DNA from: Deltaproteobacteria bacterium
GTDB taxonomy: Bacteria; Myxococcota_A; Polyangia; Fen-1088
NCBI GenBank assembly: GCA_033763315.1
Contig: JANRKS010000017.1
Location: forward strand, 97,597 to 161,596
Direction of reading: 5' to 3'
DNA length: 64,000 nt
Positions 33,952 to 61,908 of the stretch are shown here, in pieces (within the stretch, counting starts at the first letter, position 1; every line of letters starts with the position of its first letter). The translations under genes and the position numbers were made by a program. The notes below the pieces were generated by a model, which worked only from the letters and a program-made list of their open reading frames with translations, was not told the DNA's origin and did no database searches.

Positions 33952-35784
33952 TTGTCACACGACCCTGCGGTGCCCGATGATCTTGAATCGCTTTACAAGA
34001 ATGTGCGCGACCTCATTGAAGATGCGGAGCGGCTTTGCACGGAGTTTGATGCAGAACTTCGCTTGATCCCCGAGCCGCACCAAGCGAGTGCCAGGAACTT
34101 GATTCACTACGTGGCGTTGCGCCGCAAAGACATTCGCGCCTTGCAAATGGCGTTGGCTGCCTGGGGCCTCAGCTCATTGGGGCGCCTTGAGGGCCATGTG
34201 ATGGCCGGGTTGCTTTCGGTGGCCAACGCGTTGGCGAAATTGCTTGGTCGTGAGCCGCCTCAGGGCGCGCCGAAATTTCGCGAAGGTGATGACACTCTTT
34301 CGCGGCACACCACCGCGTTGTTTGGTTTGCGGCAGCGCGAACATATGGTTCGCATCATGGTGACCTTGGGCGCCGAGGCAGCCCAAGATCTGTCGCTCGT
34401 TGAAACGTTGATCAGCGAGGGCATGGACGTGGCTCGTATCAACACGGCTCACGATGACGTTCACGTGTGGGCCGCGATGATTGGCAACGTGCGAAAGGCC
34501 GCGCAGCGGACGGGGCGCGCTTGTCGCGTGCTGATGGACCTGGAGGGACCCAAACTGCGGACCGGCGCGATGGCCCCCGGGCCCCGCGTTTTGCACGTGG
34601 CCGTCAAGCGCGACGCGCGAGGGATGGTCACCGCGCCGACAGCGGTGACCGTTGTGGCGAATACCACCAGCAGCCGCGCCGAATTGCCGGTGCCTTCGCT
34701 CATTTGGGCTCAACTGCAGGTTGGGGATAGCCTCACCTTCAAAGACATCCCTGGCCGCCAACGTGAACTTACGATCGTCGAGCGCCGTGAGCCGCTGGTC
34801 CTGGCGCAAACCAAGCAGCCATTCTTTGTGGAGCCGGGAATTCAGATCAACCACGTTCGCCAAGGCAAGGTGCTGGCCATTGGCGTTGTGGGCGACATCG
34901 CTCCGACAGAAACCGTCATTCACCTGGCCCCAGGGGATCGGTTTGCCTTGATGGGGCCCACGCACGTGGGGCGGCCCGCACAGCGGCATCATGACATCGT
35001 CCAGCCCGCGGTTGTTCCCTGCACGTTGCCCGAGGTGTTTCGTGAAGTGTCGTTTCACGACCGCATCTTCTTTGACGACGGCAAAATCGCGGGCGTGGTG
35101 CGCGACGTCTCGCCTGAAGCTTTGCACATTGAAGTGCTTCGTACGCCACCCAATGGGGGCAAGCTGGGCGCTGACAAAGGCATCAATTTGCCCGACACCG
35201 CGAGCCGTTTGCCGGCTCTGAGCGATGAAGACTTGCAGCACCTGGATTTTGCGGCCGCCCACGCGGACATCATTGGGTTGTCGTTCGTGCGCACGCGCAG
35301 TGACATCGAACGCCTGTACGAGGAGCTCGACCGGCGCGGCGCCAACCATCTAGGCGTGCTCCTGAAGATTGAAACGAAACGCGGGTTTGAGAACCTGCCC
35401 GACCTGCTGCTCTCGGCGTTGCGGCGGCCAGCGGTCGGCGTGATGGTGGCGCGCGGCGATTTAGGCGTTGAATTGGGCTTCGAACGGATGGCCGAGGTGC
35501 AAGAGCAAATCTTGTGGCTGTGCGAAGCCGCCCATGTGCCGGTGGTCTGGGCCACGCAAGTGCTTGAGACGCTTAACAAGAAGGGGGCGCCCACGCGTGG
35601 TGAAGTGACGGATGCGGCGATGAGCGCGCGCGCCGAATGCGTGATGTTAAACAAGGGCCCCTATGTTGTCGAAGCCGTGCGGTTCTTAGCGGACATTCTT
35701 TTGCGCATGCAGGATCATCACCAGAAGAAGACGCCCATGTTGCGAAAGCTCAAGGTGTCCGAAGGCCGTTGGGTGCCGAGTTAA
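33952..35784 (+). CDS. pyk: Pyruvate kinase (long form)
   Basis: Motifs RIMVT, ARINTAHD, DLEGPKLRTG, KIET, MVARGDLGVE, WATQVLE and CVMLNKG. Confidence 0.92.
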   Translation: MSHDPAVPDDLESLYKNVRDLIEDAERLCTEFDAELRLIPEPHQASARNLIHYVALRRKDIRALQMALAAWGLSSLGRLEGHVMAGLLSVANALAKLLGREPPQGAPKFREGDDTLSRHTTALFGLRQREHMVRIMVTLGAEAAQDLSLVETLISEGMDVARINTAHDDVHVWAAMIGNVRKAAQRTGRACRVLMDLEGPKLRTGAMAPGPRVLHVAVKRDARGMVTAPTAVTVVANTTSSRAELPVPSLIWAQLQVGDSLTFKDIPGRQRELTIVERREPLVLAQTKQPFFVEPGIQINHVRQGKVLAIGVVGDIAPTETVIHLAPGDRFALMGPTHVGRPAQRHHDIVQPAVVPCTLPEVFREVSFHDRIFFDDGKIAGVVRDVSPEALHIEVLRTPPNGGKLGADKGINLPDTASRLPALSDEDLQHLDFAAAHADIIGLSFVRTRSDIERLYEELDRRGANHLGVLLKIETKRGFENLPDLLLSALRRPAVGVMVARGDLGVELGFERMAEVQEQILWLCEAAHVPVVWATQVLETLNKKGAPTRGEVTDAAMSARAECVMLNKGPYVVEAVRFLADILLRMQDHHQKKTPMLRKLKVSEGRWVPS

Positions 35785-37573: not shown

Positions 37574-37773
37574 GGTCCTATTTTCGGCGCTTTGAGGCAG
37601 AACGTGAACGCCGGGCTTTGGCATGGGTGTATGTGTTGCGTGGGCCTACCTAAGAGATGCGAACGCCCTGGCGGCCGCCGGATTCCGCCGTCGTTTAACT
37701 ATCGACAATCGCTTTTGCTGCCGATTCCCTCCAGTATATGAAGAGTGAACCACCAGGAAGTTCGGGTGATCGC

Positions 37774-39486
37774 ATGAAGTTTACTGTGAAGCTTCACTTG
37801 GGAAGCGCGCTTGCGCTCCTCTTCGCGGCCTGCTCAGGGGCCGTTTCCGGCGACGGAACGGGTGACGGATTCGGCGCCCAAGGTGGTGGTGGCGGCCGCT
37901 CTGGAGGCGGCCCAGGCGCCACGCACGCGTGCCCTAAAGCAGGCGCTGCGGATCCCGGTGCGTCGCCGTTGCGGCGACTCTCGAAGGTTGAATACAACAA
38001 CACCGTGGCCGACCTGCTGGGTGACACCAGCGAGCCTGCGAATGCGTTCCCTCCAGAATCGCGCGTGCATGGTTTCGACAACCAAGTGACGACTCAGACG
38101 GTGACGTACACGCTGGCGGATTACATGTTCAAAACCGCCGAGCAGCTCGCGAACAGAGCGATCACCAAACTCGACACACTGTATTCGTGTGACGTCGCGA
38201 AGCTGGGCGAGATGACTTGCGCGCAGACCTTCGTTCGCGACTTTGGCAAACGCGCCTACCGTCGGCCCTTGCTTGCCGCGGAGGAAACGAGCCTCATGGG
38301 GACCTACACCAAGGGCAGGCAAACGGGCGACTTCAAGAACGGCTTGCGTTTGGTGATCACGCGCTTGTTGGCGTCGCCACACTTTCTGTATCGCCCTGAG
38401 CTCGGCGATGCGGGTGCCGCGAACGCCCGAGGGGCTGTGCCATTGACGGCGTATGAAGTGGCTTCGCGGCTTTCCTATCTGCTGTGGGGAACGATGCCCG
38501 ACCAAACCTTGTTCGATGCCGCAGACAAGAACGAACTGTCCACCGCGAACCAGGTGTCTTCACACGTGGCGCGAATGATGAATGACCCCAAGGCAAAAGC
38601 AGCGGTGCGGAGATTCTATTCGGGGTGGCTCATGTTGGATCGGCTGGCCCAGTCGTCCAAAGATGAGAAGTTGTTTCCGGGTTATGGCGCCGTTGTGCCT
38701 TCAATGATGGAAGAGATCACACGCACGATGGATGATGTGATCTGGGGGGACGATGCCTCGGTCACCAAGCTGTTCACCACTGATTACACTTTTGCCAACC
38801 GGGATCTGGCTTCGTTTGTCGGGCTCTCAAATGCCGCCTCGATGAACAAAGACTTCGCGCGCGTGAGCTTGTCGCCACAGGGGCCGGGAGGCGCCTCACA
38901 GCGTATGGGCATTCTGGCAACGCCAGGTTTGTTGGCCGCGCAATCAAAGCCGCAAGAAACGTCGCCGGTGTTGCGGGGCCGCTTTGTGCTCGAACAGATG
39001 CTGTGCATGGAATTGCCTTTGCCACCCGCGGGCGTGCCGCCTCTCGAGGCTGTGGACACCTCGGCGCTGACCACGCGCGAACGGTTTGAGCAACATGCCG
39101 AATCAGCGTGCGCTTCGTGCCACAAGTTCTTGGACCCCATTGGCTTTGCCTTCGAGAATTTCGACGCTGCCGGGCGATACCGTTCCACCGAGAAAAACAA
39201 GCCCATCAACACGAGCGGTACCCTCACCGAAACAGATGTGGACGGGGCATTTGACAACGCCGTGGGCCTCACGAACCTCTTGGCCAAAAGCGAGCGCGTG
39301 CGTGAGTGCATTGCCAAACAATGGTTTCGGTTCGCGATGGGGCGCAACGAGACGGATGAGGCCGAGCGCGGGTTAGGGCAGTTGGCCTGCGGCTTCCGCG
39401 GCGACGAGGCCAATCTGAACACGCTTTTAGGTGCGGTGACGCAAACCGATGCCTTCCTCTACAAAACGGCGGGAGCCAAACCATGA
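37774..39486 (+). CDS. DUF1592/DUF1588-family multidomain lipoprotein with one CxxCH
   Basis: LRRLSKVEYNNTVADLL; ASRLSYLLWGTMPD; TSPVLRG; CASCH; lipobox FAAC. Confidence 0.9.
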   Translation: MKFTVKLHLGSALALLFAACSGAVSGDGTGDGFGAQGGGGGRSGGGPGATHACPKAGAADPGASPLRRLSKVEYNNTVADLLGDTSEPANAFPPESRVHGFDNQVTTQTVTYTLADYMFKTAEQLANRAITKLDTLYSCDVAKLGEMTCAQTFVRDFGKRAYRRPLLAAEETSLMGTYTKGRQTGDFKNGLRLVITRLLASPHFLYRPELGDAGAANARGAVPLTAYEVASRLSYLLWGTMPDQTLFDAADKNELSTANQVSSHVARMMNDPKAKAAVRRFYSGWLMLDRLAQSSKDEKLFPGYGAVVPSMMEEITRTMDDVIWGDDASVTKLFTTDYTFANRDLASFVGLSNAASMNKDFARVSLSPQGPGGASQRMGILATPGLLAAQSKPQETSPVLRGRFVLEQMLCMELPLPPAGVPPLEAVDTSALTTRERFEQHAESACASCHKFLDPIGFAFENFDAAGRYRSTEKNKPINTSGTLTETDVDGAFDNAVGLTNLLAKSERVRECIAKQWFRFAMGRNETDEAERGLGQLACGFRGDEANLNTLLGAVTQTDAFLYKTAGAKP

Positions 39487-40850
39487 AACGCATCAATCGT
39501 CGAACCGTGTTGCGTGGCTTGGGCGGGGTTGTGGTGCCTTTGCCCCTCTTGGATATCATGGCCCGCACGGCGCCGGCGCGCGCCGAGTCCTCGATCACCA
39601 AGACGGGCCCCAACGGTGCACCCAAACGATTTATTGTGTTCTTCACGCCGTGTGGCCAGGGTGCCGATTGGCTGCGTTGCACGAACGACGCGCAGGGCAA
39701 GCTGGTGCTCAGCGCGGCCATGCAGCCCTTGCAGCGCCATAAAGACCAATTGATGGTTTTGGATGGCATAAACAACAAGAGCGCGCTGTTCGACGCGGCC
39801 TCGATCGATCCCGGCCACCAAAAGCCCATGGTGAACCTGATGACTTGCTTGCCCTCCAACAACGGCCTGGGCGGTGGCATTTCGATCGATCAGGCGATTG
39901 CGAAGGAGATCTCAACAGGCACGAAATTCCCGTCGGTGCAGTTGGGTGTGCAGCCAAACGGGGGCTTTTCCGGGGCGCTTTCCTACAGCGCCGCTCGTGT
40001 GCCCATTCCCCCCATTGGCGATCCGAAACAAGCGTTTACGCGGCTGTTCTCTGATCTCAACACGGACCAAACCACTTTCGCCAAGCTTAACGCCGATCGA
40101 AAATCGATTCTCGATGGCATCAAAGAAGACTTCAGCGGCTTGGCGCAAAAGCTAAGCGGTGACGATCGGATGAAGATCGAGTCTCACCTTGATGGCATTC
40201 GAGAAGTTGAATCGCGTCTGGTGTCTTCTAACACCACGAGTTGCCTTGCTCCCACGGCGCCTGCGGCCGGGGGCACGGGCGCGGACGGCTTGATCGCCGC
40301 CGGCGACGCATACATCAAGCTTTTGGCCACGGCATTGGCCTGTGACCTTACCCGCGTGGCCTCGATCATGTACCAAGGATCGGGAGGCAACCCGCAGCTG
40401 CCTGGCATGCCCAAGGGCATTCATGACGCTTCTCACGATTACGGAGCGCTTGGCTGGCCGGTGCGCAACCAATACACATCGTGGTTCGCCGGGCGCTTCG
40501 CCATGTTGATGGATCTCTTGAAGGCCGCGGACGAAGGGGGGCGTTCTGTTCTCGACAACACCGTGATCTACTGGTGCTCCGAGCACGGCGCGGGCAACCA
40601 CAACTATGACTGGATGCCGATCTTGGTGGCCGGAAGCGGCGGCGGGTACTTCAAGACAGGGCGGCAAATCAAATACCCCAACCTCACGGATGGCCTGAAC
40701 TATGTGCAATACAACGCGGGCTCCGACAAGGCCACCGGTCCAAGCCAAGCGGACCTCTACGTTTCATTCATGAACGCCATGGGTATTAGCGCCAACACCT
40801 TTGGCGTTGCAAGCCAGTGCAAGGGGGCGTTGCCTAATCTCACGGTGTAG
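39483..40850 (+). CDS. DUF1552 domain protein with Tat signal
   Basis: INRRTVLRGLGG; SIDQ; LACDLTRVAS; IHDASH; SEHGAGNH. Confidence 0.9.
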   Translation: MKRINRRTVLRGLGGVVVPLPLLDIMARTAPARAESSITKTGPNGAPKRFIVFFTPCGQGADWLRCTNDAQGKLVLSAAMQPLQRHKDQLMVLDGINNKSALFDAASIDPGHQKPMVNLMTCLPSNNGLGGGISIDQAIAKEISTGTKFPSVQLGVQPNGGFSGALSYSAARVPIPPIGDPKQAFTRLFSDLNTDQTTFAKLNADRKSILDGIKEDFSGLAQKLSGDDRMKIESHLDGIREVESRLVSSNTTSCLAPTAPAAGGTGADGLIAAGDAYIKLLATALACDLTRVASIMYQGSGGNPQLPGMPKGIHDASHDYGALGWPVRNQYTSWFAGRFAMLMDLLKAADEGGRSVLDNTVIYWCSEHGAGNHNYDWMPILVAGSGGGYFKTGRQIKYPNLTDGLNYVQYNAGSDKATGPSQADLYVSFMNAMGISANTFGVASQCKGALPNLTV

Positions 40851-41944: not shown

Positions 41945-42847
41945 ATGCTGGTATTCGCTGGAATCGGTTTTGCTTTATGCCTCGTTCTGTTGCCCATGGC
42001 GTTTGCCGTTCTGCGGCTGCTTGGTGTTTATGCCATCGTCAAAGAACGTGAATGCCGGGTATTCGTCCTGTTTGGCAAAGTGCTGGCCTCCATCGACGAG
42101 CCAGGTTTGCATTTCCTTTGGTTCAAACTGGGCCCGGCGGCTCTGATTGTGAACTGGTTGGGCAAATCCTACGCCATCGATATGCGGCTCGATCAACAGT
42201 ACCTACGCAGCCAGCCCGTGAACTCGGAAGAGGGCGCACCGATGGGCATCGGCATTTGGTACGAGATGTTCATCAGCGATCCCGTGGCATATCTATTCCG
42301 CAACGCCGATCCGCGTGGCTCCTTGGCGGCAAACGTGGGCAACGCGGCGGTGCGCTGCTTATCGAATATGCCGCTTGAAGGCATGCTCGAGAACCGCCAC
42401 CAGATGAGCCAATCGGTGCGCGATGAGGTTTCACCCAAGGCGCACGAATGGGGATACCAACTTGGCTCCGTCTATATACGCAAGGTCCACTTTCGAGATG
42501 ACGCCATGATTGCTCAGATCGAGGCCAAGGTGGTGAACCGCCTGCGACAGGTGACGTCGGCCATTCAACAAGGGGGCGCCAACCAGGTGAGCATTATCAA
42601 GAGCACCGCGGAACGACAAGCGGCGATCGAGTTCGCCAAAGCCGCAGCCTTGCGTCCCGAGATCGTGGGGGCCGCTTTGAACAAGATTGCCGCTGATCCA
42701 GAGGTGCTCGAGACCATGTTCAAGATGCTTGAGACCGAACGGTTGTTAGAAGGCGAACGCCGCGTGACGTTTGTGCCGCAAGGCACGGGCAGTTTGGCGC
42801 CTTTACTTGCGGGCGCTTCACCCACGATCGTTCGCCCGTCACGTTGA
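41945..42847 (+). CDS. SPFH domain protein (second of a pair)
   Basis: N-terminal TM; VLFGK...EPGLHF; WGYQLGSVYIRKV. Confidence 0.85.
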   Translation: MLVFAGIGFALCLVLLPMAFAVLRLLGVYAIVKERECRVFVLFGKVLASIDEPGLHFLWFKLGPAALIVNWLGKSYAIDMRLDQQYLRSQPVNSEEGAPMGIGIWYEMFISDPVAYLFRNADPRGSLAANVGNAAVRCLSNMPLEGMLENRHQMSQSVRDEVSPKAHEWGYQLGSVYIRKVHFRDDAMIAQIEAKVVNRLRQVTSAIQQGGANQVSIIKSTAERQAAIEFAKAAALRPEIVGAALNKIAADPEVLETMFKMLETERLLEGERRVTFVPQGTGSLAPLLAGASPTIVRPSR

Positions 42848-43071
42848 TTGCTGCGTGCAAGAACTGCGAAGCCCTAAAAAAATGCGCTGCGCGCGCAATT
42901 GCTGCACGGAAACGAGGGGAAAACGCCGCAAAAAACGCGCCTTAGGGCGTGCTTTGTAACTGTGGGGTCGACCCAAGGTTTCGTCTTTGCCAAATCGTTG
43001 ATTAGCGCTTGAGGCCGCCGCCGAAACCGTTACCATGCAGCCGTTGCGGCCAAGGCCGCGGTTAAGAAACC

Positions 43072-43686
43072 ATGGCTCAGACGATCGTTATTGTTGCGCT
43101 CTCGCTTGCGTTGGCCTTTGCGGCGTTTCTCCATTTCGGCGTGCCAACCCTGCTGCACACGCATTGGGGAAAGCTTGCCCTGCTGGTTGGCGCGGTGGTG
43201 CTTCCGGTTGTCACCTCTGCAGGCAGTATGGCCGTGGGGTTTCACCAATCGAGCCGCACGGTGTTCTGCTTGACCTGCCACGAGATGCAGAACCACGGCA
43301 AAAGCTTGTTTGCCGACAATCCGAAATCATTGGTGGCGGCTCACTACCAAAATCGCTTGGTGGATCGAGACAGCATTTGTTACTCGTGCCACAAGGACTA
43401 CGCGATGTTCGGCGACGTCAAGGCGAAGCTCAATGGGCTACGTCACGTTTATGTGCACTATCTCGGTAGCATTCCCAACAAGTTTGCGCTCTACCAGCCG
43501 TATCCCAACTCGAACTGCTTGCATTGTCACGCCGATGCACGTCGCTTTGTGGAAGGCCAAGCACATGCGGGAGTTATGACGAAGATCTTGTCGAACCAGA
43601 TGTCGTGCCTTGGCTGCCACAACGTGGCCCATGACATGAAGAATGTGGAAGCTGGAAATTTTTGGCAGGCGCAATACCCCCAGTAG
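43072..43686 (+). CDS. NapC/NirT (NrfH/CymA-like) membrane-anchored tetraheme cytochrome c
   Basis: Two N-terminal hydrophobic helices; FCLTCHEM, CYSCH, CLHCH and CLGCH...AH; KAKLNGLRH. Confidence 0.9.
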   Translation: MAQTIVIVALSLALAFAAFLHFGVPTLLHTHWGKLALLVGAVVLPVVTSAGSMAVGFHQSSRTVFCLTCHEMQNHGKSLFADNPKSLVAAHYQNRLVDRDSICYSCHKDYAMFGDVKAKLNGLRHVYVHYLGSIPNKFALYQPYPNSNCLHCHADARRFVEGQAHAGVMTKILSNQMSCLGCHNVAHDMKNVEAGNFWQAQYPQ

Positions 43687-43692
43687 CTCCTG

Positions 43693-43896
43693 ATGGGAAC
43701 CAAAAACGAAAAACAAGTGCGTCGAGGCCTTTTGCTCACAGGTATGGGCCTAGCGATTGAGGTTGGCGCGCAATTTTATTGGACGCCCATGACCTTCGTC
43801 GTGGCGGCGTCCGTGGGTGTTCCACTGGTGCTGCTGGGAGCCTGGATGTTTATGCAAGCCGCGTGGCGATCGCTTAAACAAAAGGGAGCCCTATGA
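43693..43896 (+). CDS. Small two-TM membrane protein in the cytochrome operon
   Basis: 67 aa with two hydrophobic segments; starts 6 nt after the NapC-like gene and overlaps the next gene at ATGA. Confidence 0.7.
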   Translation: MGTKNEKQVRRGLLLTGMGLAIEVGAQFYWTPMTFVVAASVGVPLVLLGAWMFMQAAWRSLKQKGAL

Positions 43897-44210
43897 CCGG
43901 GCGGCAAGGACTGGTTCTAACGTTGGCGTTCGGTGCCGTGAGCCTTGTTTCCGTGTGGGCTGTGGCCGTGCCTGATGTGGTGCGCATTCCACACCGCGAT
44001 CTCGCTACACCGATGCCCAACGCCCGCTTTTCTCATCGTGGCCACGCACAGTACCAGTGCTATTCGTGCCATCCCTCTGTGTTCCCGCAAATGCGTGAGA
44101 GCTTCACGCACGTGCAGATGGATGAAGGCCGCTACTGCGCGCGCTGCCACAACGGCGGTGCGGCACCGGCCGTGAAGTCTTACGCATGTGAGGTGTGCCA
44201 TGCGCGCTGA
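43893..44210 (+). CDS. c7-like periplasmic triheme cytochrome c
   Basis: Signal peptide; FSHRGH; CYSCH, CARCH(NG) and CEVCH. Confidence 0.88.
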   Translation: MTGRQGLVLTLAFGAVSLVSVWAVAVPDVVRIPHRDLATPMPNARFSHRGHAQYQCYSCHPSVFPQMRESFTHVQMDEGRYCARCHNGGAAPAVKSYACEVCHAR

Positions 44211-46290
44211 GGTTGGGGCGCTGCTCGCGCTGCTCGTTTGGCCGTCGCTTGCGTCGGCTGAGCCAACCCGCCCCGAGAAGAACCGGCAGCAGTTGCTGGA
44301 CGAGCTGGGCTTGCATCGGGTCAACAAGCCTGAACCTGCCGAACCGAAACCTGCCGAGGCTGAACCCGCGGAACCTGAATCGCCAACAACTCAGCCCTCC
44401 GCGGCTGCGGAGTCCACCAAGCCGGCTGGGCCTGCACCGCCTTCGTTCAAGCGCCAGATCCATCCGTGGCTCAATCAAATGTGTGGTGCGTGCCATATGA
44501 AGGACGGGCCTGCCGGCGCGACGGGGTTGCTGTTGGGTCAAAGCGGCGCGCGCGATCACGCGAGCGTCGTGAAGTTTACGAACATGCGCGCGCCCAAGAA
44601 AAGCAGCCTCGTACTTAAAGCGCTGGGCAGCGCGCACGGGGGGGGCGCTGTGGCCACGGCGGGATCCTCCGAAATGCGCCGGTTGTTGGCCTGGATCGCG
44701 AGCGGTGCGCCCTATGTGGACCCCGTGGCGGACGCCAACCCTGTCGCTCTTCCCGCAACGAGGGCGCCTTCGAAGAACAAAGCAAATACGGAGGTTGCCC
44801 CCGCCGCTGCCGCGCCGGCTGAGCCTGCTGCGAATCTGAGCGCCACGCCCGTGGTGGTGGCTTCTCCAGAGGTTTCATCGCTGCCTGAAACACCGAAGGC
44901 CGCGCCCGCATCAACAGCCTTCGCCGATGTTGTGCACCCGGTGTTGCATAGCAAATGCAGCACGTGCCACAGCGCCGCGGGTATGGCGGCGCGCACGCGG
45001 TTTGTGCTCACGGGTGACATCAAAGCTGATTATGCCGGCGTCGCTGTGTTGGTGACACCGGGCGCACCCGACCAAAGTTTGCTGCTGCAGAAGGCATCAG
45101 GCCAAGCACACCTGCCCGTGTTGCCGAAGGGCACGGAGGCTTTCATCGCCGTTGCTGCCTGGATCAACGATGGCGCGCCAAGTGGTGCGCCATCGCCACC
45201 CGCGTCTATCGAAGCCGCCGCGCCCGACACGGGGGGGCGCCTCACGTCATCAACCCCGTCGCCGCCGTTGTCTCACGCGTCGCTTCCGATGGCGCCACCC
45301 TCCAATCCCGGATTCGCGCTGGCAGGGTTTCGTCTCAATGGCCGCTTCGACATGAACTTGGAACGTCGTGGTGTTTCCGCGCAGCCTTTTAGCGACGGCC
45401 AAACGCAGCTCCAGAACTATCATCACTTCTTGTTTCTTTCGCGCGACGACGCGGATGAGCCGATCAACTTCAGCGTCGAGTTGACGGCCTTGACCTTCTG
45501 GGAAGCGAGCTTGCGCGTGTCACCAGCGCACGCGCCTTATGACCTGCGTTTGAAGGTGGGCAAGCTCATCGTGCCCTTCGGCGCGGAGCCGCTGTTCCAT
45601 CAAAGTTATGGTGGCTTGCAGGGTTTCGATCAAAAGGTTTTGCCGGTGTTTTGGGCGCAAAATGGTTTTGGCGCCAAACTATCCAAACGTCTGTCGCACC
45701 TCGGCCTCATGGCCGACGCGTTCGTGGTGCGTGGCTACGCTCTGCGCGACGCCGAGGGGGTGCTTAGCCTGCAAAGCGACATCTCATCAACGGACGACGT
45801 GCGGCCTGCCTATGGCTTGCGTTTGAACGCGTCTTTTGGCCCGGCCTCGGCCTATTACAGCCTGCTCGTGAACGGACTTGGCTTTGGCCGCACGCTGGTC
45901 ATGCAAGCGATCGATCTGAGCTTGTGGCGCTGGCATGGCGTACCCGTGCTTGAGCGCTTCACTTTCGGCCTTGGTTTCTTGCGTGCCGACATCTCTGGTG
46001 GGGGCCCAGGCAAGGACTATTACCATTTCGCCAGCTACTACCAGGCGCGCTTTTACATCACGGACGTTGTGTACGTGCAGTACCGCCAAGGTTTGCGAAC
46101 GTTCAATAACCGCCGCGGCTTCTATCAAGATACCACGCGGTTTACCGTTGAAGATGGCTCCGCCCACAACGTAGGCATCGTGTGGCGACACAAAGCTTGG
46201 ACCACCGGTGCCTTTGGCTTCTGGAACCTCGAGAAGGTCAATGAAGCGCGCGATGACTTCTTCCGTTTGGTGGTGGCCTATGAGTTCTAG
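44200..46290 (+). CDS. Diheme cytochrome c fused to a C-terminal outer-membrane porin-like beta-barrel
   Basis: Signal peptide ending ASA-E; two homologous cytochrome domains (CGACH, CSTCH) with Pro/Ala linkers; barrel with RLNGRFDM and LKVGKLIVPFG; terminal VVAYEF. Confidence 0.8.
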   Translation: MRAEVGALLALLVWPSLASAEPTRPEKNRQQLLDELGLHRVNKPEPAEPKPAEAEPAEPESPTTQPSAAAESTKPAGPAPPSFKRQIHPWLNQMCGACHMKDGPAGATGLLLGQSGARDHASVVKFTNMRAPKKSSLVLKALGSAHGGGAVATAGSSEMRRLLAWIASGAPYVDPVADANPVALPATRAPSKNKANTEVAPAAAAPAEPAANLSATPVVVASPEVSSLPETPKAAPASTAFADVVHPVLHSKCSTCHSAAGMAARTRFVLTGDIKADYAGVAVLVTPGAPDQSLLLQKASGQAHLPVLPKGTEAFIAVAAWINDGAPSGAPSPPASIEAAAPDTGGRLTSSTPSPPLSHASLPMAPPSNPGFALAGFRLNGRFDMNLERRGVSAQPFSDGQTQLQNYHHFLFLSRDDADEPINFSVELTALTFWEASLRVSPAHAPYDLRLKVGKLIVPFGAEPLFHQSYGGLQGFDQKVLPVFWAQNGFGAKLSKRLSHLGLMADAFVVRGYALRDAEGVLSLQSDISSTDDVRPAYGLRLNASFGPASAYYSLLVNGLGFGRTLVMQAIDLSLWRWHGVPVLERFTFGLGFLRADISGGGPGKDYYHFASYYQARFYITDVVYVQYRQGLRTFNNRRGFYQDTTRFTVEDGSAHNVGIVWRHKAWTTGAFGFWNLEKVNEARDDFFRLVVAYEF

Positions 46291-46720
46291 ATGGCTGGTG
46301 TTGCTGCTGTTTGCTGGCTGCGCGGATTTGTCACGCGGCGAGACGCCTGAAGTGCCCGATGCGGCTTTGGCGCAAGACGCGCAGGGCCCCGCCGACGGAG
46401 CCATGGCTGACGACGCTGAGAGCGCAGACCCCAAACCTTCCACCGTTGTGTTCGCTGACGTGCAGCCGCTGTTCGCTGCCGGCTGCGGCGAGTGCCACCG
46501 CATGGGAGGTCAGGCTGCGAACACCACACTTCTGCTAACGGGTGACGCCAGCTCGGATTTGGCCACCTTATTGCCGTACATAAACCGCAACGACAACGCA
46601 AACAGCCGCTTGTTGACGAAAGCCTTCGGGCGCAACCACGGCGGCGGTGCGATTTGGTCCTCTGGCTCGATGCAGGCGACAACCGTATTGATGTGGATCC
46701 AACAAGGAGCGCGGCCGTGA
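46280..46720 (+). CDS. Monoheme cytochrome c lipoprotein
   Basis: Lipobox FAGC; VQPLFAAGCGECH...HGGG...WIQQGA, homologous to the heme domains of the upstream gene. Confidence 0.82.
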   Translation: MSSRWLVLLLFAGCADLSRGETPEVPDAALAQDAQGPADGAMADDAESADPKPSTVVFADVQPLFAAGCGECHRMGGQAANTTLLLTGDASSDLATLLPYINRNDNANSRLLTKAFGRNHGGGAIWSSGSMQATTVLMWIQQGARP

Positions 46721-46737
46721 GGCGCGAGACGAAAGCG

Positions 46738-49113
46738 ATGACCATGAACTTGTGCACACGATTGACTGTGGCGTTTGGTGTGGTTGCTGTTTTGGCGGGC
46801 TGTGCCGATCTTGAGCTTGAAAAGGTCCCCACAATCGTCACCACGGGCTCGCACCAAGTGTTGGTGGGGCAGACCTTGCAGATTACCGCCAGCACAACCA
46901 ATGCTGCCGATACCAGTTACACCTACGCGAGCAGTGCCCAAGCGGTGGCGTCGGTCGGGCCGACGGGCCTTGTCACAGGTGTGAGCGCAGGCGAAGCCGA
47001 CATCGTCGTGACCGGCGTGCCAAGCGGTGCGGTTGGTAAGCACGCGGTTGTGGTCGTGGCAAATGCCTTGAGCGCGGACGCGATGCCTGAACCAGATGGC
47101 GCCGCGCCCGACGCGACCGCCGATGCAGAACCTGTGCAGATCCCCTACTTCGATAAATGGAAAGGTTCCGCCCACGCCGATTCAACCTCTGAACCCTTCG
47201 CACATTGGAACAAAGAGGGTGCCGTGCCTGTAAACTGCGCGCGCTGCCACAGCTCCGAGGGTTTTATCGATTATTTGGGCGGCGATGGCTCGGTGCCCGG
47301 CCGCGTGGATGCGCCAGCTCCCACGCAGTCGGTCGTTCGTTGTGTGACGTGCCACGATCCCGCCGCCACCAAGCTTTCGACTGTGACGTTCCCTTCAGGC
47401 GCCACGATTTCAGGGCTTGGCGCTGAGGCCCGCTGCATGACGTGCCACCAAGGCCGCGCCTTTGGCGGTGATGTAGATAAATCCATCGCGGCCGCAGCGC
47501 CCGCCACGCTTGACACCGTCAGCGACAAGCTGGGCTTCCTCAACATCCACTATTATCCGGCGGCTGCCACGCTTTATGCTGGGCGTGCCAAAGGTGGATA
47601 CCAGTACGAGGGGCAGGTTTATGACGTGCGCTTCCGCCACGTTGAAGGCTACGACACATGCACTGGTTGCCACGACCCCCATTCGCTGCAGATCAAGTTC
47701 AACGAGTGCGTGTCGTGTCACGCGGGTGCCAAAGACTTGGCCGGCGCTCAGCAGATCCGGATGTTTTCGTCTCAGAACCGCGACTATGACGGCGATGGCA
47801 ACGTGCAGGAGGGCTTGGCACAAGAGCTTTACGGCGTGCGCGACAAACTCACGGCCGCGATGGCGGAGTACGCCAAAGAAAAGAACGCGCCGATTTGTTA
47901 TCAACCCGCCACCTATCCCTATTTCTTCAACGACACCAACAAGAACGGTCTGTGTGGCGCTGATGAAGCTGTGGCGACGAATGGCTATAAGACCTGGACG
48001 CCGCGAATGGTGAAGGCTGCGTATAACTTTCAACTTGCCACGAAGGATCCAGGCGGCTTCGCTCACAACGCGAAGTACTTGATCCAACTCATGCACGACA
48101 GCATCAACGATCTGAACCAAGCGCTGCTGGTGAAGGTGGATATGGCACAGGCCGTTCGCCAAGATACCGGCCACTTCAATGGCGCGGGCCAAGCGGCACG
48201 GCGTTGGGATTCAGGTGATGCCGTCGACGCCACCTGTTCGCGTTGCCATGGGGGCTCGGAAGGTTACCGCTTCTATGTGCAATATGGCGTTGGCCTCAAG
48301 GTGCAAGAAACCGCCAACGGTTTGGATTGCGCCACCTGCCACACCAGCTTTGGCAGCAAGTTCGATGTGCTTGCGGTGCCCTCCACAACTTTCCCAAGCG
48401 GGGTCGTACGCAAGGAGCCGGGCAACGATAACCTATGCAGCACTTGCCACAGCGGTCGCTCCGCCAAAGCCACGGTCGATGGCATCATCGCCACCGGCCC
48501 GCTGAAGTTCTCCAACGTTCACTACCTGCCGGCGGCGGCGACAAAACTGGGATCTGCCACCAAGGTCGGTTACGAATACACAGGCAAGACTTACGCAGGG
48601 CCCTTGACCCACATGGGCGGCGTGCAGTGCACGTCATGCCACGATCCCATCGCCAGCAAACACAGCTTCCGCATCGACGATGTGTTTGCCGAGCGTTGCC
48701 GCACGTGCCACGCCGATGCGTTGGGCAACGCCGAAAACATTCGCCTGGTGCACCTTGCGGACTACGACGGCGACAAGAACACCACCGAAACGTTGCCCGC
48801 TGAGCTTTCGGGCATGGCAAGTCGCTTGCTGGCGGCCATGGTGGCGGTGGCGACACCGAAGCTTTGCTACGCCCACACGAACCCGTACTTCTTCACCGAC
48901 ACCGATGGCAACGGCACCTGCGACGCCACCGAGGCGGTATCTGCCAACGCCTACAAAACGTTCACACCCGCGTTGTTGAAGGCCTCGTTCAATTATCAGC
49001 TTTACCAAGTGGAGCCGGGCGCCTGGGCCCACAACTTCAACTACGTGGGGCAACTTTTGTACGATTCGATCGAGGACCTGGGCGGCAACGTTACGGGGCT
49101 GACCCGGCCTTAA
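46738..49113 (+). CDS. Decaheme cytochrome c lipoprotein with Ig-like (Big_2-like) domain, OmcB-like
   Basis: Lipobox LAGC; Ig-like YASSAQAVASVGPTGLVTGV; 10 CxxCH in two 5-heme repeats, each ending PG.(F/W)AHN..Y..QL..DSI.DL. Alternative start GTG at 46717. Confidence 0.88.
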   Translation: MTMNLCTRLTVAFGVVAVLAGCADLELEKVPTIVTTGSHQVLVGQTLQITASTTNAADTSYTYASSAQAVASVGPTGLVTGVSAGEADIVVTGVPSGAVGKHAVVVVANALSADAMPEPDGAAPDATADAEPVQIPYFDKWKGSAHADSTSEPFAHWNKEGAVPVNCARCHSSEGFIDYLGGDGSVPGRVDAPAPTQSVVRCVTCHDPAATKLSTVTFPSGATISGLGAEARCMTCHQGRAFGGDVDKSIAAAAPATLDTVSDKLGFLNIHYYPAAATLYAGRAKGGYQYEGQVYDVRFRHVEGYDTCTGCHDPHSLQIKFNECVSCHAGAKDLAGAQQIRMFSSQNRDYDGDGNVQEGLAQELYGVRDKLTAAMAEYAKEKNAPICYQPATYPYFFNDTNKNGLCGADEAVATNGYKTWTPRMVKAAYNFQLATKDPGGFAHNAKYLIQLMHDSINDLNQALLVKVDMAQAVRQDTGHFNGAGQAARRWDSGDAVDATCSRCHGGSEGYRFYVQYGVGLKVQETANGLDCATCHTSFGSKFDVLAVPSTTFPSGVVRKEPGNDNLCSTCHSGRSAKATVDGIIATGPLKFSNVHYLPAAATKLGSATKVGYEYTGKTYAGPLTHMGGVQCTSCHDPIASKHSFRIDDVFAERCRTCHADALGNAENIRLVHLADYDGDKNTTETLPAELSGMASRLLAAMVAVATPKLCYAHTNPYFFTDTDGNGTCDATEAVSANAYKTFTPALLKASFNYQLYQVEPGAWAHNFNYVGQLLYDSIEDLGGNVTGLTRP

Positions 49114-49173
49114 CGCAGCCTTGGTGCGGTGTTGCTGCGCGGGGGAGGGCAGCTAAACTTCCTCCGTAGCAAC

Positions 49174-49881
49174 ATGGCGCTAGAAGAATACCGCAGCAAA
49201 CGGAAGTTCAAGGTTACCAGCGAGCCGGAAGGCAAGCCGGTCAAGAAGTCATCGAAGCGCAAGAAGAAGCTCGCGTTCGTGGTGCAAAAACATCGCGCCT
49301 CCGCTTTGCACTACGATCTAAGGCTGGAGTGGAATGGTGTGATGCTTTCGTGGGCCGTGCCCAAGGGCCCCTCGTACGACCCGAAGGTCAAACGGATGGC
49401 CATGCACGTGGAAGATCACCCGATCGAATACAACAAGTTCGAGGGCGTCATTCCCGAAGGCGAATACGGTGGCGGCACCGTGATGATTTGGGACCACGGC
49501 ACATGGACGCCCGAGTCCGAGGACGTGGACGACGCTCTTGCGCGCGGCGATCTCAAATTTACCTTTGAGGGTTTGAAGCTACGTGGATCATGGGTGCTGG
49601 TGCGAACGGGCCGCAAAGGTGAACAGCCAAGCAAATCTTGGTTGCTGATCAAGCATAAGGATGAGTGGACCAGCGAGCAGGACGTCACCGTGTTGTTCCC
49701 ACGCTCCGTGGTTTCGAACCGGCTTTTATTTGAAATTGCACGCGACGAAGGGGGCAACGTGCGCAAGGCGGCCGATGGCGATCCACCCGAGGCACTTAAG
49801 GAAATCGTGGAGAACCCAAGTCTCCTCGCACCCGCCAGGGGCAAAGGCAAGAAGTCGGTGTGGCATTCGAATCGAGGCTGA
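49174..49881 (+). CDS. Stand-alone LigD 3'-phosphoesterase domain protein
   Basis: Motifs LEEYRSKRKF, FVVQKHRASALHYDLRLE, SWAVPKGPS, VEDHP and YGGGTVMIWD. Confidence 0.92.
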   Translation: MALEEYRSKRKFKVTSEPEGKPVKKSSKRKKKLAFVVQKHRASALHYDLRLEWNGVMLSWAVPKGPSYDPKVKRMAMHVEDHPIEYNKFEGVIPEGEYGGGTVMIWDHGTWTPESEDVDDALARGDLKFTFEGLKLRGSWVLVRTGRKGEQPSKSWLLIKHKDEWTSEQDVTVLFPRSVVSNRLLFEIARDEGGNVRKAADGDPPEALKEIVENPSLLAPARGKGKKSVWHSNRG

Positions 49882-49910
49882 AGCGGCGAGGCAGCTGCTA
49901 CCCTGGTTCT

Positions 49911-50780
49911 ATGATCTCCCGCATCGTCACGCACCCTGGTGGCGCCCATAAAGACGAATTCTTGGCCGTTTGCGTGTTGATTGCGAAGTCATCCGCGCCT
50001 GTGTTTCGGCGCGAGCCCACGGCCGACGATCTTGAACGAACGGATGTGGCCGTGGTGGACGTGGGCGGTGAACACGAGCCACTGCGCCTGAACTTCGATC
50101 ATCATCATTTTCCGCGCGAACACCCGCCCACGTGTTCCATCAGTTTGGTGTTGCAGCACTACGGCCTCTACGACGACGCGCTTTTGTTCTGCCCATGGCT
50201 TGCGCCCGCGGAATGGTTTGACTCGCGCGGCCCAAACAGAACCGCGGAATGGTTGGGGGTGCCTCGGGACGTGGTGCCGAAGATGAACTCGCCCATCGAC
50301 ATCACAATGATTCGTCGCTTTGCCGCCAGCACGCAGCTTGAGCCGGGCCAGCCGCTTTATGAAGTGATGCGCTTCATCGGTGACGATCTCATTTCTTACC
50401 TGCAGAACATCCGCAGCCAGATCAATTTCGTGCGTAGGCACGTCACGTTATGGTCGCTGCCAGCGCCCGGCGGGCCCATCATGACGGCCTATCTGCCTCG
50501 CACGGAGCCTGAGCTGGAAGAGCCTTCCGGCGCGCTGGCGGCCTACATTCGGGCTGAGGGCCTGTCGGCCACCGTGGCCGCACTGGTGTATCCCGACCGT
50601 CGTGGCGGCGGGTTCGGCCTCGGCCGCTACGAAGATCACGCGTGCCTTGACTTCTCGCGTGTGCAAGACGAGCCAGACGTGCACTTTGCTCACAAGACCG
50701 GCTTTATCTGCAAGACGTCGGCGACGGACAGCGGGCGCCTTGCGGCCCTGGTGCAGCAGGCTTGGAAAACGCCCGCGTAA
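49911..50780 (+). CDS. MYG1 family (DHH-like metal-dependent hydrolase) protein
   Basis: Motifs IVTHPGGAHKDE, VVDVGG, FDHH and HFAHKTGF. Confidence 0.85.
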   Translation: MISRIVTHPGGAHKDEFLAVCVLIAKSSAPVFRREPTADDLERTDVAVVDVGGEHEPLRLNFDHHHFPREHPPTCSISLVLQHYGLYDDALLFCPWLAPAEWFDSRGPNRTAEWLGVPRDVVPKMNSPIDITMIRRFAASTQLEPGQPLYEVMRFIGDDLISYLQNIRSQINFVRRHVTLWSLPAPGGPIMTAYLPRTEPELEEPSGALAAYIRAEGLSATVAALVYPDRRGGGFGLGRYEDHACLDFSRVQDEPDVHFAHKTGFICKTSATDSGRLAALVQQAWKTPA

Positions 50781-60237: not shown

Positions 60238-61908
60238 ATGCCATCCCACCGGTTTAGGACGTGCGCGCTCCTCGCATCCGCTTTCGCGCTCGTCAGCGAT
60301 GTCGGCTGCACGGGGGGCACCAGTGGCTCCCAAGACTCAGGCGATGGCCAGGGGGATGGCAGCGACGTCCCGGGGGCGGCGGGCAGCGATGGGCAAGTGT
60401 GTGAAGTTCCAGACGATGGCTGGGCGGTGGCGCCCATGCGGCGTTTGACCGCCGCTGAATATGACTACGCCGTGGCGGATCTCCTGGGCGAAACCCGCCA
60501 CGTGGCCGCCGACACGCTTGACGCCGATGAAGCCATCTCTGGATTTGCCGCGAACACGCAGGTGACCGTTGGTGGTGGTGACGCAGAGAAGTTGGCCAAT
60601 GTCGCGCGGGCGGTGGCCGAAGATGCGGTGACGCGGTTGAACGAGGTTCTAAAGTGCGCATCCGGGCAAAGCAACGAGGCCTGCGCGCTGTCATTCATCG
60701 AACGCTTCACGCGGCGGGCGTACCGACGCAAAGCCACGAGTGATGAACTGGGCATTTTGAACCAGCTCTATAAAGACAAGGCGGCCGCGACAGATCACAC
60801 GCAGGGCGTGCGGCTGGCCATTGAAGCTGTGTTGCAACAGGCCCCGTTTCTCTATCGGCCCATCATCGGCGCTAAGACGCCGAAAGATGGCGTGAACAAG
60901 TTGACCGGTGAAGAGCTGGCTTCACGCATGTCGTTCTTCTTCTGGAGTTCGGTGCCTGATGACGAACTTCTGGACGCGGCGGACGACGGTCAGCTCGACA
61001 CCGTGGAAGGCTTGAAATCGCACGCCGAGCGCATGATGAAAGACCCTCGGTTTGATCGCACTTTGCAAAGCTTTGCGTTGCAGTGGCTTGGCTTAGGCAA
61101 CGAGCCGCAAAAAGACGACATTGCGTATCCCGCGTTCAACACGGAGGTTTGGCGATCGGCAAAATCAAGCGTCGCGCAGTTCTTCTCGTACGTCGTGAAG
61201 GAAACGGACGGCAGCCTGGAAAACCTCTTCACATCGCCGGTTGTGTTTGCGGACCAGCAGTTGGCCACCACCTATGGCATGACCGTCAAAGCCAACGGGT
61301 TCGAGAAAACGGCCACAGATCCCAAGCGCCGAGGTGGCGTATTCATGCAGGCCGCTGTGCTTGCGAACCTGGCTGGCACCGAAGAATCCTCCCCTGTCAA
61401 ACGCGGTGTGTTCGTGCGCAGCAAGCTGCTGTGTCAATCACCGCCCCCTCCACCTGCCAACGGCGTGGCTGCGATTGCGCCGGCTTCGCCGGACAAGACG
61501 CAGCGCCAACGTCTAGAGGAGCACCGCAAGAACCCCACGTGCGCCGCTTGTCACGCATTCTTCGACCCGCTGGGGCTCGCTTTTGAACATTTCGATGGCG
61601 TTGGTGCCTATCGTGAAAAAGAGCACGGGCTGGCCATCGATTCTTCGGGTGATCTCACGGAGAGCGACGTGGACGGCCCCTTTGCCGATGGCGTTGAGCT
61701 GATGTCCCGCCTGCAAGGCAGCCAAGTGGTCGCCGAGTGCCTGACCACTCAGTTCTACCGCTTTGCCGTGGGGCGGCTTGAATCACCGGCGGACGCTTGC
61801 GTGCTTAAGCGTCTAACAGCTTCGATGATGGGGCAGGGGTATTCGGTTCGCGAGGTGTTCACGAAGGTTGCGACGTCAGATGCATTTCGGTTTGTGGGGC
61901 GGATCTAA
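60238..61908 (+). CDS. DUF1592/DUF1588-family multidomain lipoprotein with one CxxCH
   Basis: GAGGAGG RBS; MRRLTAAEYDYAVADLL; WSSVPDDELL; SSPVKRG; CAACH. Confidence 0.9.
   Translation: MPSHRFRTCALLASAFALVSDVGCTGGTSGSQDSGDGQGDGSDVPGAAGSDGQVCEVPDDGWAVAPMRRLTAAEYDYAVADLLGETRHVAADTLDADEAISGFAANTQVTVGGGDAEKLANVARAVAEDAVTRLNEVLKCASGQSNEACALSFIERFTRRAYRRKATSDELGILNQLYKDKAAATDHTQGVRLAIEAVLQQAPFLYRPIIGAKTPKDGVNKLTGEELASRMSFFFWSSVPDDELLDAADDGQLDTVEGLKSHAERMMKDPRFDRTLQSFALQWLGLGNEPQKDDIAYPAFNTEVWRSAKSSVAQFFSYVVKETDGSLENLFTSPVVFADQQLATTYGMTVKANGFEKTATDPKRRGGVFMQAAVLANLAGTEESSPVKRGVFVRSKLLCQSPPPPPANGVAAIAPASPDKTQRQRLEEHRKNPTCAACHAFFDPLGLAFEHFDGVGAYREKEHGLAIDSSGDLTESDVDGPFADGVELMSRLQGSQVVAECLTTQFYRFAVGRLESPADACVLKRLTASMMGQGYSVREVFTKVATSDAFRFVGRI

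Follow-up and report, generated by a model that had tools for sequence, protein, structure and literature searches.

A six-gene, 20-heme cluster with a cytochrome-porin fusion in Myxococcota as a candidate quinol-to-cell-surface electron conduit

Gene layout and conservation across Myxococcota

The window analyzed here is a stretch of 64,000 nucleotides (nt) from a genome deposited as Deltaproteobacteria bacterium (assembly GCA_033763315.1, contig JANRKS010000017.1, positions 97,597–161,596 of the forward strand), and the subject of this study is a cluster of six genes, named A to F, at positions 43072–49113 of that window. An earlier sequence-only reading had proposed that the cluster is a co-directional set resembling a complete module for extracellular electron transfer (EET). 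All six open reading frames (ORFs) were found where that reading had placed them, on the same strand, with CxxCH counts of 4, 0, 3, 2, 1 and 10 in gene order and thus 20 heme sites in a motif scan:

43072–43686, plus strand: gene A, 204 residues, four CxxCH, the first of them CLTCHEM
43693–43896, plus strand: gene B, 67 residues, no CxxCH
43893–44210, plus strand: gene C, 105 residues, three CxxCH
44200 (ATG) or 44188 (GTG) to 46290, plus strand: gene D, 696 or 700 residues, two CxxCH
46280–46720, plus strand: gene E, 146 residues, one CxxCH, lipobox LFAGC
46738–49113, plus strand: gene F, 791 residues, ten CxxCH, lipobox LAGC

From these coordinates the successive junctions measure +6, −4, −11, −11 and +17 nt. 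The motif scan found no CxxxCH, CxxxxCH or CxxCK in any of the six products. Counting stop-to-stop frames of at least 60 residues, only 19 frames with three or more CxxCH were present in the whole genome (7.63 Mb, 60.6% GC), and A, C and F are three of these, so the clustering of heme genes at this locus is not a matter of chance. All six genes are present in single copy in the genome.

Related loci were collected by a pattern scan in which one genome per species was used, and 50 loci were returned. These come from Myxococcota metagenome-assembled genomes (MAGs) of soils, fens, sediments and fresh water and from cultured strains, namely Corallococcus exercitus, C. coralloides KYC2213 (a complete genome), C. 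carmarthensis, C. terminator, C. interemptor, Myxococcus dinghuensis and Myxococcus sp. 1LA. Since all named relatives are Myxococcota or MAGs carrying old ‘proteobacteria’ labels, the host is a myxobacterium, as had been suggested. The order A-B-C-D-E-F on one strand was retained in half of the loci (25 of 50), and contig ends cut most of the others. Two loci (L040 and L021) show the full 4+0+3+2+1+10 layout with overlapping genes. The layout is intact in the complete genome of C. coralloides KYC2213 and in M. dinghuensis.

Product D is predicted to join two monoheme domains to a C-terminal barrel, and this barrel was used to compare the loci. Two CxxCH lie ahead of the barrel in its reading frame in 24 of the 50 loci, while in 14 the barrel is a protein of its own, preceded by C and followed by E. 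A homolog of A is present upstream of the barrel in 28 loci and one of C in 42; seven of the eight loci lacking C are cut at the left end, and the eighth (L035) is ambiguous due to a broken frame. B, where found, always lies between A and C. E follows the barrel in 47 loci, the exceptions being two at contig ends (L001 and L042) and one with a broken frame (L050). Across 401 genomes sampled evenly from the phylum, a stricter first look gave barrel-covering matches in at least 11 genomes, which is to be read as a floor, and within the window's own class the only such match in this sample was in its own genome.

A tree of 45 barrel domains placed all fused forms within a single clade of 31 rows with support of 100/99, and an F-type decaheme was found in all 29 of its rows in which the decaheme partner is visible. 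The barrel-only forms fall outside this clade on a tree rooted at its midpoint only. The tree of F shows the same major clades as that of the D barrel, which indicates that D and F travel together. Synteny and trees together support A to F as one conserved unit.

Predicted proteins of the cluster

Protein A belongs to the NapC/NirT family (PF03264, E-value 6.5e-12, 46 bits against a cut-off of 24.1), with residues 32–190 covering positions 6–172 of the 174 in the profile. Together with its four CxxCH and the CLTCHEM motif, this matches the earlier description of A as a NapC/NirT tetraheme cytochrome with CxxCHxM, a first motif that is an NrfH-like trait. Hydropathy analysis gave two N-terminal hydrophobic segments (residues 1–28 and 32–57), where members of this family usually have one anchor, and orthologs of A in Corallococcus likewise have two. 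All equivalog models scored far below cut-off on A (NrfH 37.4 against 134.2 bits, NapC 26.9 against 349, TorC 36.6 against 478.2), as did the napC_nirT subfamily model (31.1 against 310.6 bits). Judged by these profiles, A is a divergent member of the superfamily and an ortholog of none of NrfH, NapC and TorC. It is presumed to be a quinol dehydrogenase.

No Pfam family was matched by protein B at E ≤ 0.1. Alignment with 14 orthologs (40–61% identity to B of the window) showed invariant residues R10, G19, P32, G42, P44 and G49 as well as a HWTPxTF-like motif, which shows that B is a real gene. It had been described as a 67-residue protein with two transmembrane segments; the size holds, while the hydropathy scan gave one strong segment, and the second, which is the first in order, is weaker and was read by eye only. 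B is presumably a membrane partner of A and, if its weaker segment is counted, the two proteins suggest an inner-membrane module of approximately four helices. A relationship of B to DsrP was considered and rejected (15.9 bits against a cut-off of 350). Protein C was recognized as a c7-type triheme cytochrome, as previously read, by both PF14522 (40.6 bits against 24.8) and TIGR04257 (49.5 against 40). With its signal-peptide-like N-terminus, C is presumed to be a secreted periplasmic carrier.

The domains of the two larger products are listed below, with residue numbers counted from the start at 44188 for D and from that at 46738 for F:

44446–44712, plus strand (D residues 87–175): heme domain 1 of D, helical, one heme site (CGACH), H150 invariant within HGGG
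44920–45177, plus strand (D residues 245–330): heme domain 2 of D, of the same type as domain 1, one heme site (CSTCH), H308 invariant
45313–46290, plus strand (D residues 376–700): barrel of D, 16 strands, C-terminal ...AYEF, L3-type loop at residues 462–489
46816–47061, plus strand (F residues 27–108): immunoglobulin (Ig)-like domain of F (Big_2; PF02368, 32.7 bits against 22.8)
47140–48171, plus strand (F residues 135–478): pentaheme module 1 of F, five CxxCH in a helical bundle of OcwA/NrfA-like fold
48172–49110, plus strand (F residues 479–791): pentaheme module 2 of F, a tandem duplicate of module 1

The AlphaFold model of D (mean predicted local distance difference test score, pLDDT, 72.4) consists of two helical monoheme domains and a C-terminal barrel. 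Its CxxCH motifs begin at residues 99 and 257. Heme domain 1 was modelled with a pLDDT of 81–97 and has C99, C102, H103 and H150 as invariant residues, and the linkers of approximately 70 and 45 residues are predicted to be disordered. Mean identity among homologs amounts to 55% for the barrel, 45–46% for the heme domains and 20–21% for the linkers. In the barrel, the L3-type loop at residues 462–489 (VPFGAEPLFHQSYGGLQGFDQ) is almost wholly invariant, as are histidines H412, H413, H471 and H660 and many of the charged residues. The model attaches the heme domains at the periplasmic N-terminus of the barrel.

A word-indexed search returned 58 homologs of D, and no sequence family was assigned to it above cut-off, with both PF07396 and PF11854 unmatched at E ≤ 0.1. 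Likewise, a sequence search of the PDB with the D profile gave nothing under an E-value of 0.03. By structure, however, Foldseek matched the barrel to OprP (2o4v, E-value 1.8e-9) and to general porins (OmpK36 and related proteins). VIA-align also gave OprP as the best match (Z 21.1 over 284 residues, root-mean-square deviation 4.1, identity 10–14%), with other 16-stranded porins at Z 17–20, as opposed to Z 10.3 and a deviation of 9.4 for MtrB (6r2q_B). In the Atlas, the barrel matched Porin_O_P/Porin_4 cluster models with TM scores of 0.73–0.80. The description of D as a cytochrome-porin fusion is therefore backed by fold and by no sequence family; on the model, D is a true fusion of two monoheme domains to a 16-stranded porin.

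This fold bears on a further expectation of the sequence-only reading, that of a continuous heme chain through the barrel. MtrB is a 26-stranded barrel threaded by MtrA. Pores of the OprP and general porin class are narrow solute channels, so no multiheme protein would be able to thread the barrel of D, and a heme chain in the sense of MtrAB is unlikely in a 16-stranded, OprP-like barrel with a conserved L3-type loop.

Protein E begins with the lipobox LFAGC and an invariant C-A-D-x-x-R-G, followed by a linker of approximately 45 residues that varies in length and shows little conservation, and then by a heme domain. Invariant among 30 orthologs are C14, R19, G20, C69, C72, H73 and H120. The heme domain is homologous to both domain 1 (37% identity, E-value 2e-16) and domain 2 of D (34%, 8e-14). 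As the domains of D are fused to the barrel, the gene-fusion argument suggests that E works at this same barrel, and the fusion to the periplasmic N-terminus places at least the domains of D on its inner face. It should also be noted that this type of monoheme domain forms the N-terminus of proteins of 750–1300 residues of the PSD/PSCyt family, with weak DUF1592/DUF1588 matches, in many other Myxococcota genomes (for example L051:649–3033, minus strand, and L052:190–2469, plus strand). The domain is therefore a widely reused module which is not confined to this operon.

The CxxCH counts and the lipoboxes agree with the naming of E and F as a monoheme and a decaheme lipoprotein. In F, the lipobox LAGC leads into C-A-D-L-E-L-E-K, and a search that scored 8000 candidates found 2384 homologs at E ≤ 0.001. 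The model of F (mean pLDDT 79.6, predicted template modelling score 0.72) combines the Ig-like domain with the two pentaheme modules, which share 40% identity over 327 columns (E-value 5e-64). The Big_2 domain resembles domains of S-layer, intimin, LigA and phage-tail proteins in both Foldseek and VIA-align (e.g., 7quz, Z 12.3). Foldseek gave only such Big_2 matches for the F model, and the cytochrome fold was detected by VIA-align, in which module 1 matched OcwA (6i5b, Z 11.7 over 215 residues), NrfA (1qdb, Z 10.8 over 232 residues), an octaheme nitrite reductase (8rv0, Z 10.8) and an S-layer undecaheme cytochrome (6qvm, Z 10.6 over 227 residues). No chain of MtrC, OmcA or MtrF was among the best 50 VIA-align matches listed for F, a result with which some likeness to them is still compatible. 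The PDB sequence search with the F profile was marginal (NrfA, E-value of approximately 7e-4), and PF22113 matched F on one stretch only (35.7 bits against 30), with OmcA-like_N unmatched. In MtrC/OmcA decahemes, two pentaheme domains (PF22113) alternate with beta-barrel domains (OmcA-like_N), while the modules of F are helical in the model. A likeness of F to OmcB or MtrC is not supported, and F is read instead as a tandem of two OcwA/NrfA-like pentaheme modules.

Among 41 orthologs of F, module 1 contains five invariant histidines outside the heme motifs (H146, H271, H301, H315 and H443), with which the invariant histidines of module 2 (H479, H595, H625, H642 and H765) are aligned. Five such histidines for each five-heme module, and no CxxCK, would fit ten bis-histidine hemes with no open catalytic site. 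From this conservation, F is predicted to be an electron-transfer protein rather than an enzyme.

A conserved C-A-D-[LF]-x-[RL]-[GE] directly after the lipid-bearing cysteine is common to E (46280–46330) and F (46738–46830). In a genome-wide set of 554 crude lipoprotein candidates, C-A-D-[LF] was found once, in F itself; the pattern had missed E. C-A-D near the N-terminus was also seen in the MtrC-type frames next to the barrel in L036 and, as read from the open frame only, in L034. This shared motif may be a common sorting or docking signal.

The barrel family, known conduits and neighboring genes

In four barrel-only loci (L031, L034, L036 and L032), the decaheme beside the C-barrel-E core is a member of the MtrC/OmcA family. 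PF22113 scored 181–197 bits on two stretches in three of these loci and 106 bits in L032, and OmcA-like_N was above cut-off (30–31 bits) in two of the four. In Shewanella, MtrC and OmcA act at the cell surface as terminal reductases. The decaheme position beside the barrel can be filled, then, by a protein of a family with extracellular characterized members, which provides independent comparative support for a cell-surface, EET-type role. The decaheme of L032 (4196–7102, minus strand) also carries collagen triple-helix repeats at residues of approximately 83–139 (PF01391, 50.7 bits), and stalks of this collagen-like kind are unusual for outer-membrane cytochromes.

A profile search of 1.84 billion proteins gave 194 representatives of the barrel family at E ≤ 0.001. 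Of the 25 members that were fetched, 24 have no CxxCH and most are stand-alone barrels of approximately 345–450 residues; in one remote member (P0301), a short linker connects the barrel to a single E-like heme domain. None of the 25 has an N-terminal CxxCH in the style of Cyc2. H412 and H471 (numbering of D) and the PFG motif of L3 are invariant across 17 remote members. A metagenome scan for remote barrels of low GC content, for which an alignment of seven sequences was used, found four loci. Two of these (L053:380–3625 and L055:1–4104, GC 41–45%) encode the barrel followed by an unknown gene of approximately 200 residues, an FMN_bind protein, a cytochrome with two or three hemes and ApbE, while the other two are uninformative, one being too short and the other ending directly after the barrel. 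Neighboring FMN_bind, cytochrome and ApbE genes mark flavinylated extracytosolic electron transfer (PMC8238504). The association, seen in two loci only, suggests that these remote loci encode a flavin-based counterpart of the module. Wherever its context is readable, the barrel adjoins extracytoplasmic electron carriers of differing chemistries.

The cluster was compared with the known systems for electron transfer across the outer membrane. It shares with MtrCAB, MtoAB and PioAB an outer-membrane barrel encoded together with periplasmic and lipoprotein cytochromes, and a decaheme lipoprotein as the likely terminus. A NapC/NirT-type quinol dehydrogenase is also the entry point of MtrCAB (CymA), with the difference that it is here part of the same operon. 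The barrel itself differs, that of MtrB/PioB having 26 strands whereas that of D has 16 and is OprP-like (Z 10.3 for MtrB against 21.1 for OprP), and no match to MtrB/PioB (PF11854) was found in the genome, which is 90.85% complete. Here the monoheme domains are fused to the barrel, with no MtrA-like decaheme to thread it: TIGR03508 (MtrA/DmsE type) gave 25.7 bits on A and 31.3 on F against a cut-off of 192.2, and the cluster encodes no decaheme besides F. The modelled fold of F, in turn, appears OcwA/NrfA-like rather than of the MtrC arrangement.

With the Geobacter OmaB-OmbB-OmcB and ExtABCD systems the cluster has in common a porin-like protein, a periplasmic cytochrome and an outer multiheme lipoprotein, and its periplasmic carrier C is a c7-type triheme as are the PpcA-type cytochromes of Geobacter. 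It is unlike the porin-cytochrome complexes (Pcc) of that genus in having no octaheme OmaB-type partner and no dodecaheme lipoprotein (the heme counts being 4, 0, 3, 2, 1 and 10) and a barrel that belongs to its own small family, and the model of the GSU2203 decaheme scored 25.8 bits on F against a cut-off of 325. The genes for the inner-membrane, periplasmic and outer-membrane steps are dispersed over separate loci in Geobacter.

D resembles Cyc2 and Cyc572 in combining a c-type cytochrome with a phosphoporin-like barrel of approximately 16 strands in one polypeptide. Cyc2 has its only CxxCH at the very N-terminus, directly continuous with the barrel. D, in contrast, has two globular monoheme domains of approximately 90 residues on long, poorly conserved linkers and is part of a 20-heme operon with an outer decaheme. 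The predicted barrel of AfCyc2 aligns best with PhoE (PMC10654088). With OprP and OprO, the D barrel shares its 16 strands, the inward L3-type loop and a C-terminal aromatic residue. This likeness is structural only, without membership of PF07396, and D differs in the invariant histidines of its constriction, in its fusion to cytochrome domains and in being always encoded with cytochromes or flavoproteins.

The modules of F share their fold with OcwA of Thermincola (6i5b) and the S-layer undecaheme cytochrome of Carboxydothermus (6qvm), within the NrfA superfamily; the PDB titles of both entries name them as cell-surface terminal cytochromes, and both come from Gram-positive bacteria. F, in contrast, is from a diderm and consists of two tandem modules to which a lipid anchor at the N-terminus and a Big_2 domain are added. 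NrfA and the octaheme reductases differ from F in turn, since F has no CxxCK and has as many invariant non-motif histidines as CxxCH, ten of each. A full-text literature search that did not extend to subscription journals or to the supplementary tables of MAG surveys found neither the cluster nor the barrel family described. As far as this search reaches, the arrangement is not a described system, which is what the sequence-only reading had said of it.

Upstream, the cluster is flanked by two SPFH genes followed by a gap of 224 nt before A, and downstream by a LigD_N gene and MYG1. No catalytic reductase was found among the flanking genes in the window, in agreement with the earlier statement that no terminal reductase is adjacent. 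The LigD_N gene (49129–49881; PF13298, 151.6 bits) encodes a stand-alone LigD 3′-phosphoesterase domain and starts on the same strand 16 nt past the stop of F. It was rejected as a member of the cluster despite this spacing, as it is missing from the related loci. Five flank proteins were used as queries and none was found again next to the related clusters, the sole match being a weak one (30%) to a DUF1552 protein in L033, approximately 5 kb from the barrel and on the opposite strand, and the unit is therefore taken to run from A to F. A promoter and terminator scan of 42600–50000 gave sites no more frequent than in shuffled sequence and nothing informative upstream of A. A search of sequencing runs for the cluster listed no RNA run, and three DNA runs contained only small shares of its sequence words (0.05–0.12). 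Composition was considered as an indicator of horizontal transfer and set aside, as the GC content of the cluster (57–63%, genome 60.6%) shows nothing.

Elsewhere in the window, three proteins with DUF1592/DUF1588/DUF1585/DUF1587/DUF1595 domains are encoded at 28831–30531 (minus strand), 37738–40850 (plus strand) and 60238–63331 (plus strand), none with CxxCH. A DUF1552 (HXXSHH) protein bearing a Tat-like signal comes after each of two of these, and the function of this recurrent pair is unknown. An ORF of 610 residues at 33952–35784 has a pyruvate kinase barrel only at residues 352–573, which leaves either a long unexplained N-terminal extension or a miscalled start.

Proposed electron route and alternative explanations

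It is proposed that A to F form a self-contained conduit from quinol to the cell surface, with a new porin-cytochrome architecture and an outward flow of electrons, and a probability of roughly one half is given to this proposal as a whole. A, probably with B, would oxidize quinol at the inner membrane, and C, as a soluble c7-type triheme, would ferry the electrons across the periplasm. C would then hand them to the monoheme domains at the periplasmic mouth of the D porin, that is, the two tethered domains of D and that of E. The barrel of D would be the crossing of the outer membrane. F, with an Ig-like stalk and two all-bis-histidine pentaheme modules, is presumed to be the terminal cell-surface cytochrome and would pass electrons to an extracellular or insoluble acceptor, for example Fe(III) or Mn(IV) oxides or humic quinones. 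Its lipobox, Ig-like domain and OcwA/6qvm-like fold give F the appearance of a surface electron-transfer protein. We infer the contacts between the proteins, the surface location of F and perhaps of E, the passage of charge through the pore and the outward direction of flow.

The earlier idea of a self-contained EET module of mixed architecture is thereby kept in part. The conserved unit, the fusion in D and the MtrC/OmcA-type neighbors of the barrel speak for it, while an OmcB-like F is not supported and an MtrAB-type heme chain is unlikely.

Several observations weigh against such a conduit. Its weak point is the crossing of a 16-stranded, L3-constricted pore, which on the model of D is too narrow for a multiheme protein to thread as MtrA threads MtrB. 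The cluster is also without an elongated periplasmic multiheme cytochrome of the MtrA or OmaB type. Possibilities for the crossing are a cofactor or metal on the invariant histidines, a segment of a lipoprotein that enters the pore, or a diffusing redox solute. Furthermore, the F modules share their fold with enzymes as well, namely catalytic NrfA and octaheme nitrite reductases, the all-bis-histidine reading of F comes from conservation counts and not from coordinates, and outer-membrane lipoproteins, as E and F would be, face the periplasm by default. The cultured carriers are known as aerobic predators, and a genome with only 19 multiheme frames beside three heme-copper oxidase genes does not look like that of an organism specialized in metal reduction. 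The host is probably aerobic or facultative and would use the cluster when oxygen is scarce.

The first of the possibilities for the crossing can be put in a more specific, if speculative, form. D-type barrels could be electron-conducting porins in which H412 on strand 2 and H471 in L3 hold a non-covalent heme or a metal at the constriction, with nothing threading the barrel. An electron would then pass from a periplasmic monoheme domain to the loaded pore and on to an outer lipoprotein cytochrome. The same barrel family would serve modules of the F and MtrC/OmcA types in Myxococcota and FMN_bind/ApbE modules in other bacteria of low GC content. This proposal, which draws on the conserved residues of the pore, is regarded as improbable.

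The proposed conduit must be weighed against a redox module in which all cytochromes lie inside the periplasm. D would then be an ordinary channel, perhaps selective for anions or metals, which admits a small soluble compound with redox activity, for example chelated Fe(III), a quinone or humic analog or an oxyanion, and the heme domains of D at the pore exit, with E and F, would reduce or oxidize this substrate with electrons of the quinol pool that arrive via A and C. That the best barrel match is the phosphate-specific OprP (Z 21.1) and that all top matches are 16-stranded solute porins fits such a channel, and the near-invariant L3-type loop and the invariant charged residues of the barrel are what would be expected of a selective constriction. 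The heme domains of D sit at the periplasmic N-terminus of the barrel, the default orientation of outer-membrane lipoproteins is inward, and the fold class of F takes in periplasmic enzymes such as NrfA. However, relatives encode MtrC/OmcA-type decahemes, of which the characterized members are extracellular, beside the same barrel, and F has an Ig-like domain as in surface proteins, with OcwA and the S-layer undecaheme as its closest cytochrome folds. With its ten hemes, as many conserved distal histidines and no CxxCK, F does not resemble an enzyme for small substrates, and a wire of ten hemes would be needless for a solute already inside the periplasm. This arrangement is considered unlikely.

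NapC/NirT proteins can also run in reverse, which counts against a fixed outward flow. NapC/NirT homologs are also encoded with the Fe(II)-oxidizing Mto clusters. In an inward conduit, F, or the pore of D in a Cyc2-like manner, would oxidize Fe(II), Mn(II) or reduced humics outside the cell or entering the pore, and the electrons would run through E, D and C to the terminal oxidases, with A feeding part of them into the quinone pool in reverse. The three heme-copper oxidases could take such electrons, and the invariant H412 and H471 could bind a metal ion in the pore. D also shares with Cyc2 the general design of a cytochrome with a 16-stranded phosphoporin-like barrel, the predicted barrel of AfCyc2 aligning best with PhoE (PMC10654088). 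Against this, D lacks the N-terminal CxxCH continuous with the barrel that defines Cyc2, its heme domains being globular and on long linkers, and an outer decaheme of either the F or the MtrC/OmcA type is typical of reducers and not of Cyc2-type oxidizers. The hosts, moreover, are heterotrophs with large genomes, and no link to carbon fixation or lithotrophy was seen in the window. An inward conduit is thus held to be quite improbable. Outward flow is favored over inward flow at approximately 60:40 because the hosts look like aerobic heterotrophs and because A is in a quinol-dehydrogenase family.

Finally, the cytochromes might store electrons in the periplasm as a capacitor or buffer redox stress, for example by detoxifying reactive species during predation, without any defined partner outside and with a merely co-regulated porin. 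This would suit aerobic hosts with few multiheme cytochromes and the lack of an acceptor-specific gene within the cluster, as well as the occurrence across Myxococcota of E-type heme-domain homologs on PSD/PSCyt-family proteins, whose function is unknown. However, the strict conservation of A and B as a link to the quinol pool, the attachment of heme domains to the barrel, which arose in one clade and was then kept, and the MtrC/OmcA-type proteins that adjoin the barrel in relatives point to a directed pathway and not a passive store. This explanation is very unlikely indeed.

To our knowledge, the conduits known to carry electrons across the outer membrane are few, namely MtrCAB and its relatives, Pcc/Ext of Geobacter and Cyc2, each from a specialist metal reducer or oxidizer. 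If the proposed outward conduit is correct, the cluster would represent a fourth design, in which a small barrel of the porin class carries its own cytochrome domains. Its OcwA-type double-pentaheme lipoprotein is unusual, as is the presence of a quinol dehydrogenase and a periplasmic carrier in the same operon, and we know of no OcwA-type cytochrome characterized so far outside Gram-positive bacteria. Passage of charge through a 16-stranded pore would bear directly on the unsolved mechanism of Cyc2, and the compact six-gene cassette could be of use in the engineering of EET.

The cluster is widespread in Myxococcota of soil, sediment and fresh water, and the cultured carriers in Corallococcus and Myxococcus make it genetically testable. 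A survey has found ‘novel multiheme clusters’ to be most numerous in Myxococcota (bioRxiv 10.1101/2022.03.26.485925), and, if the proposed conduit is correct, these would acquire a function. Should the pore indeed hold a cofactor, aerobic soil predators such as Corallococcus would have an unrecognized route for EET. More generally, if the cluster works as proposed, predatory and nominally aerobic myxobacteria would gain a route to mineral, humic and electrode acceptors or donors.

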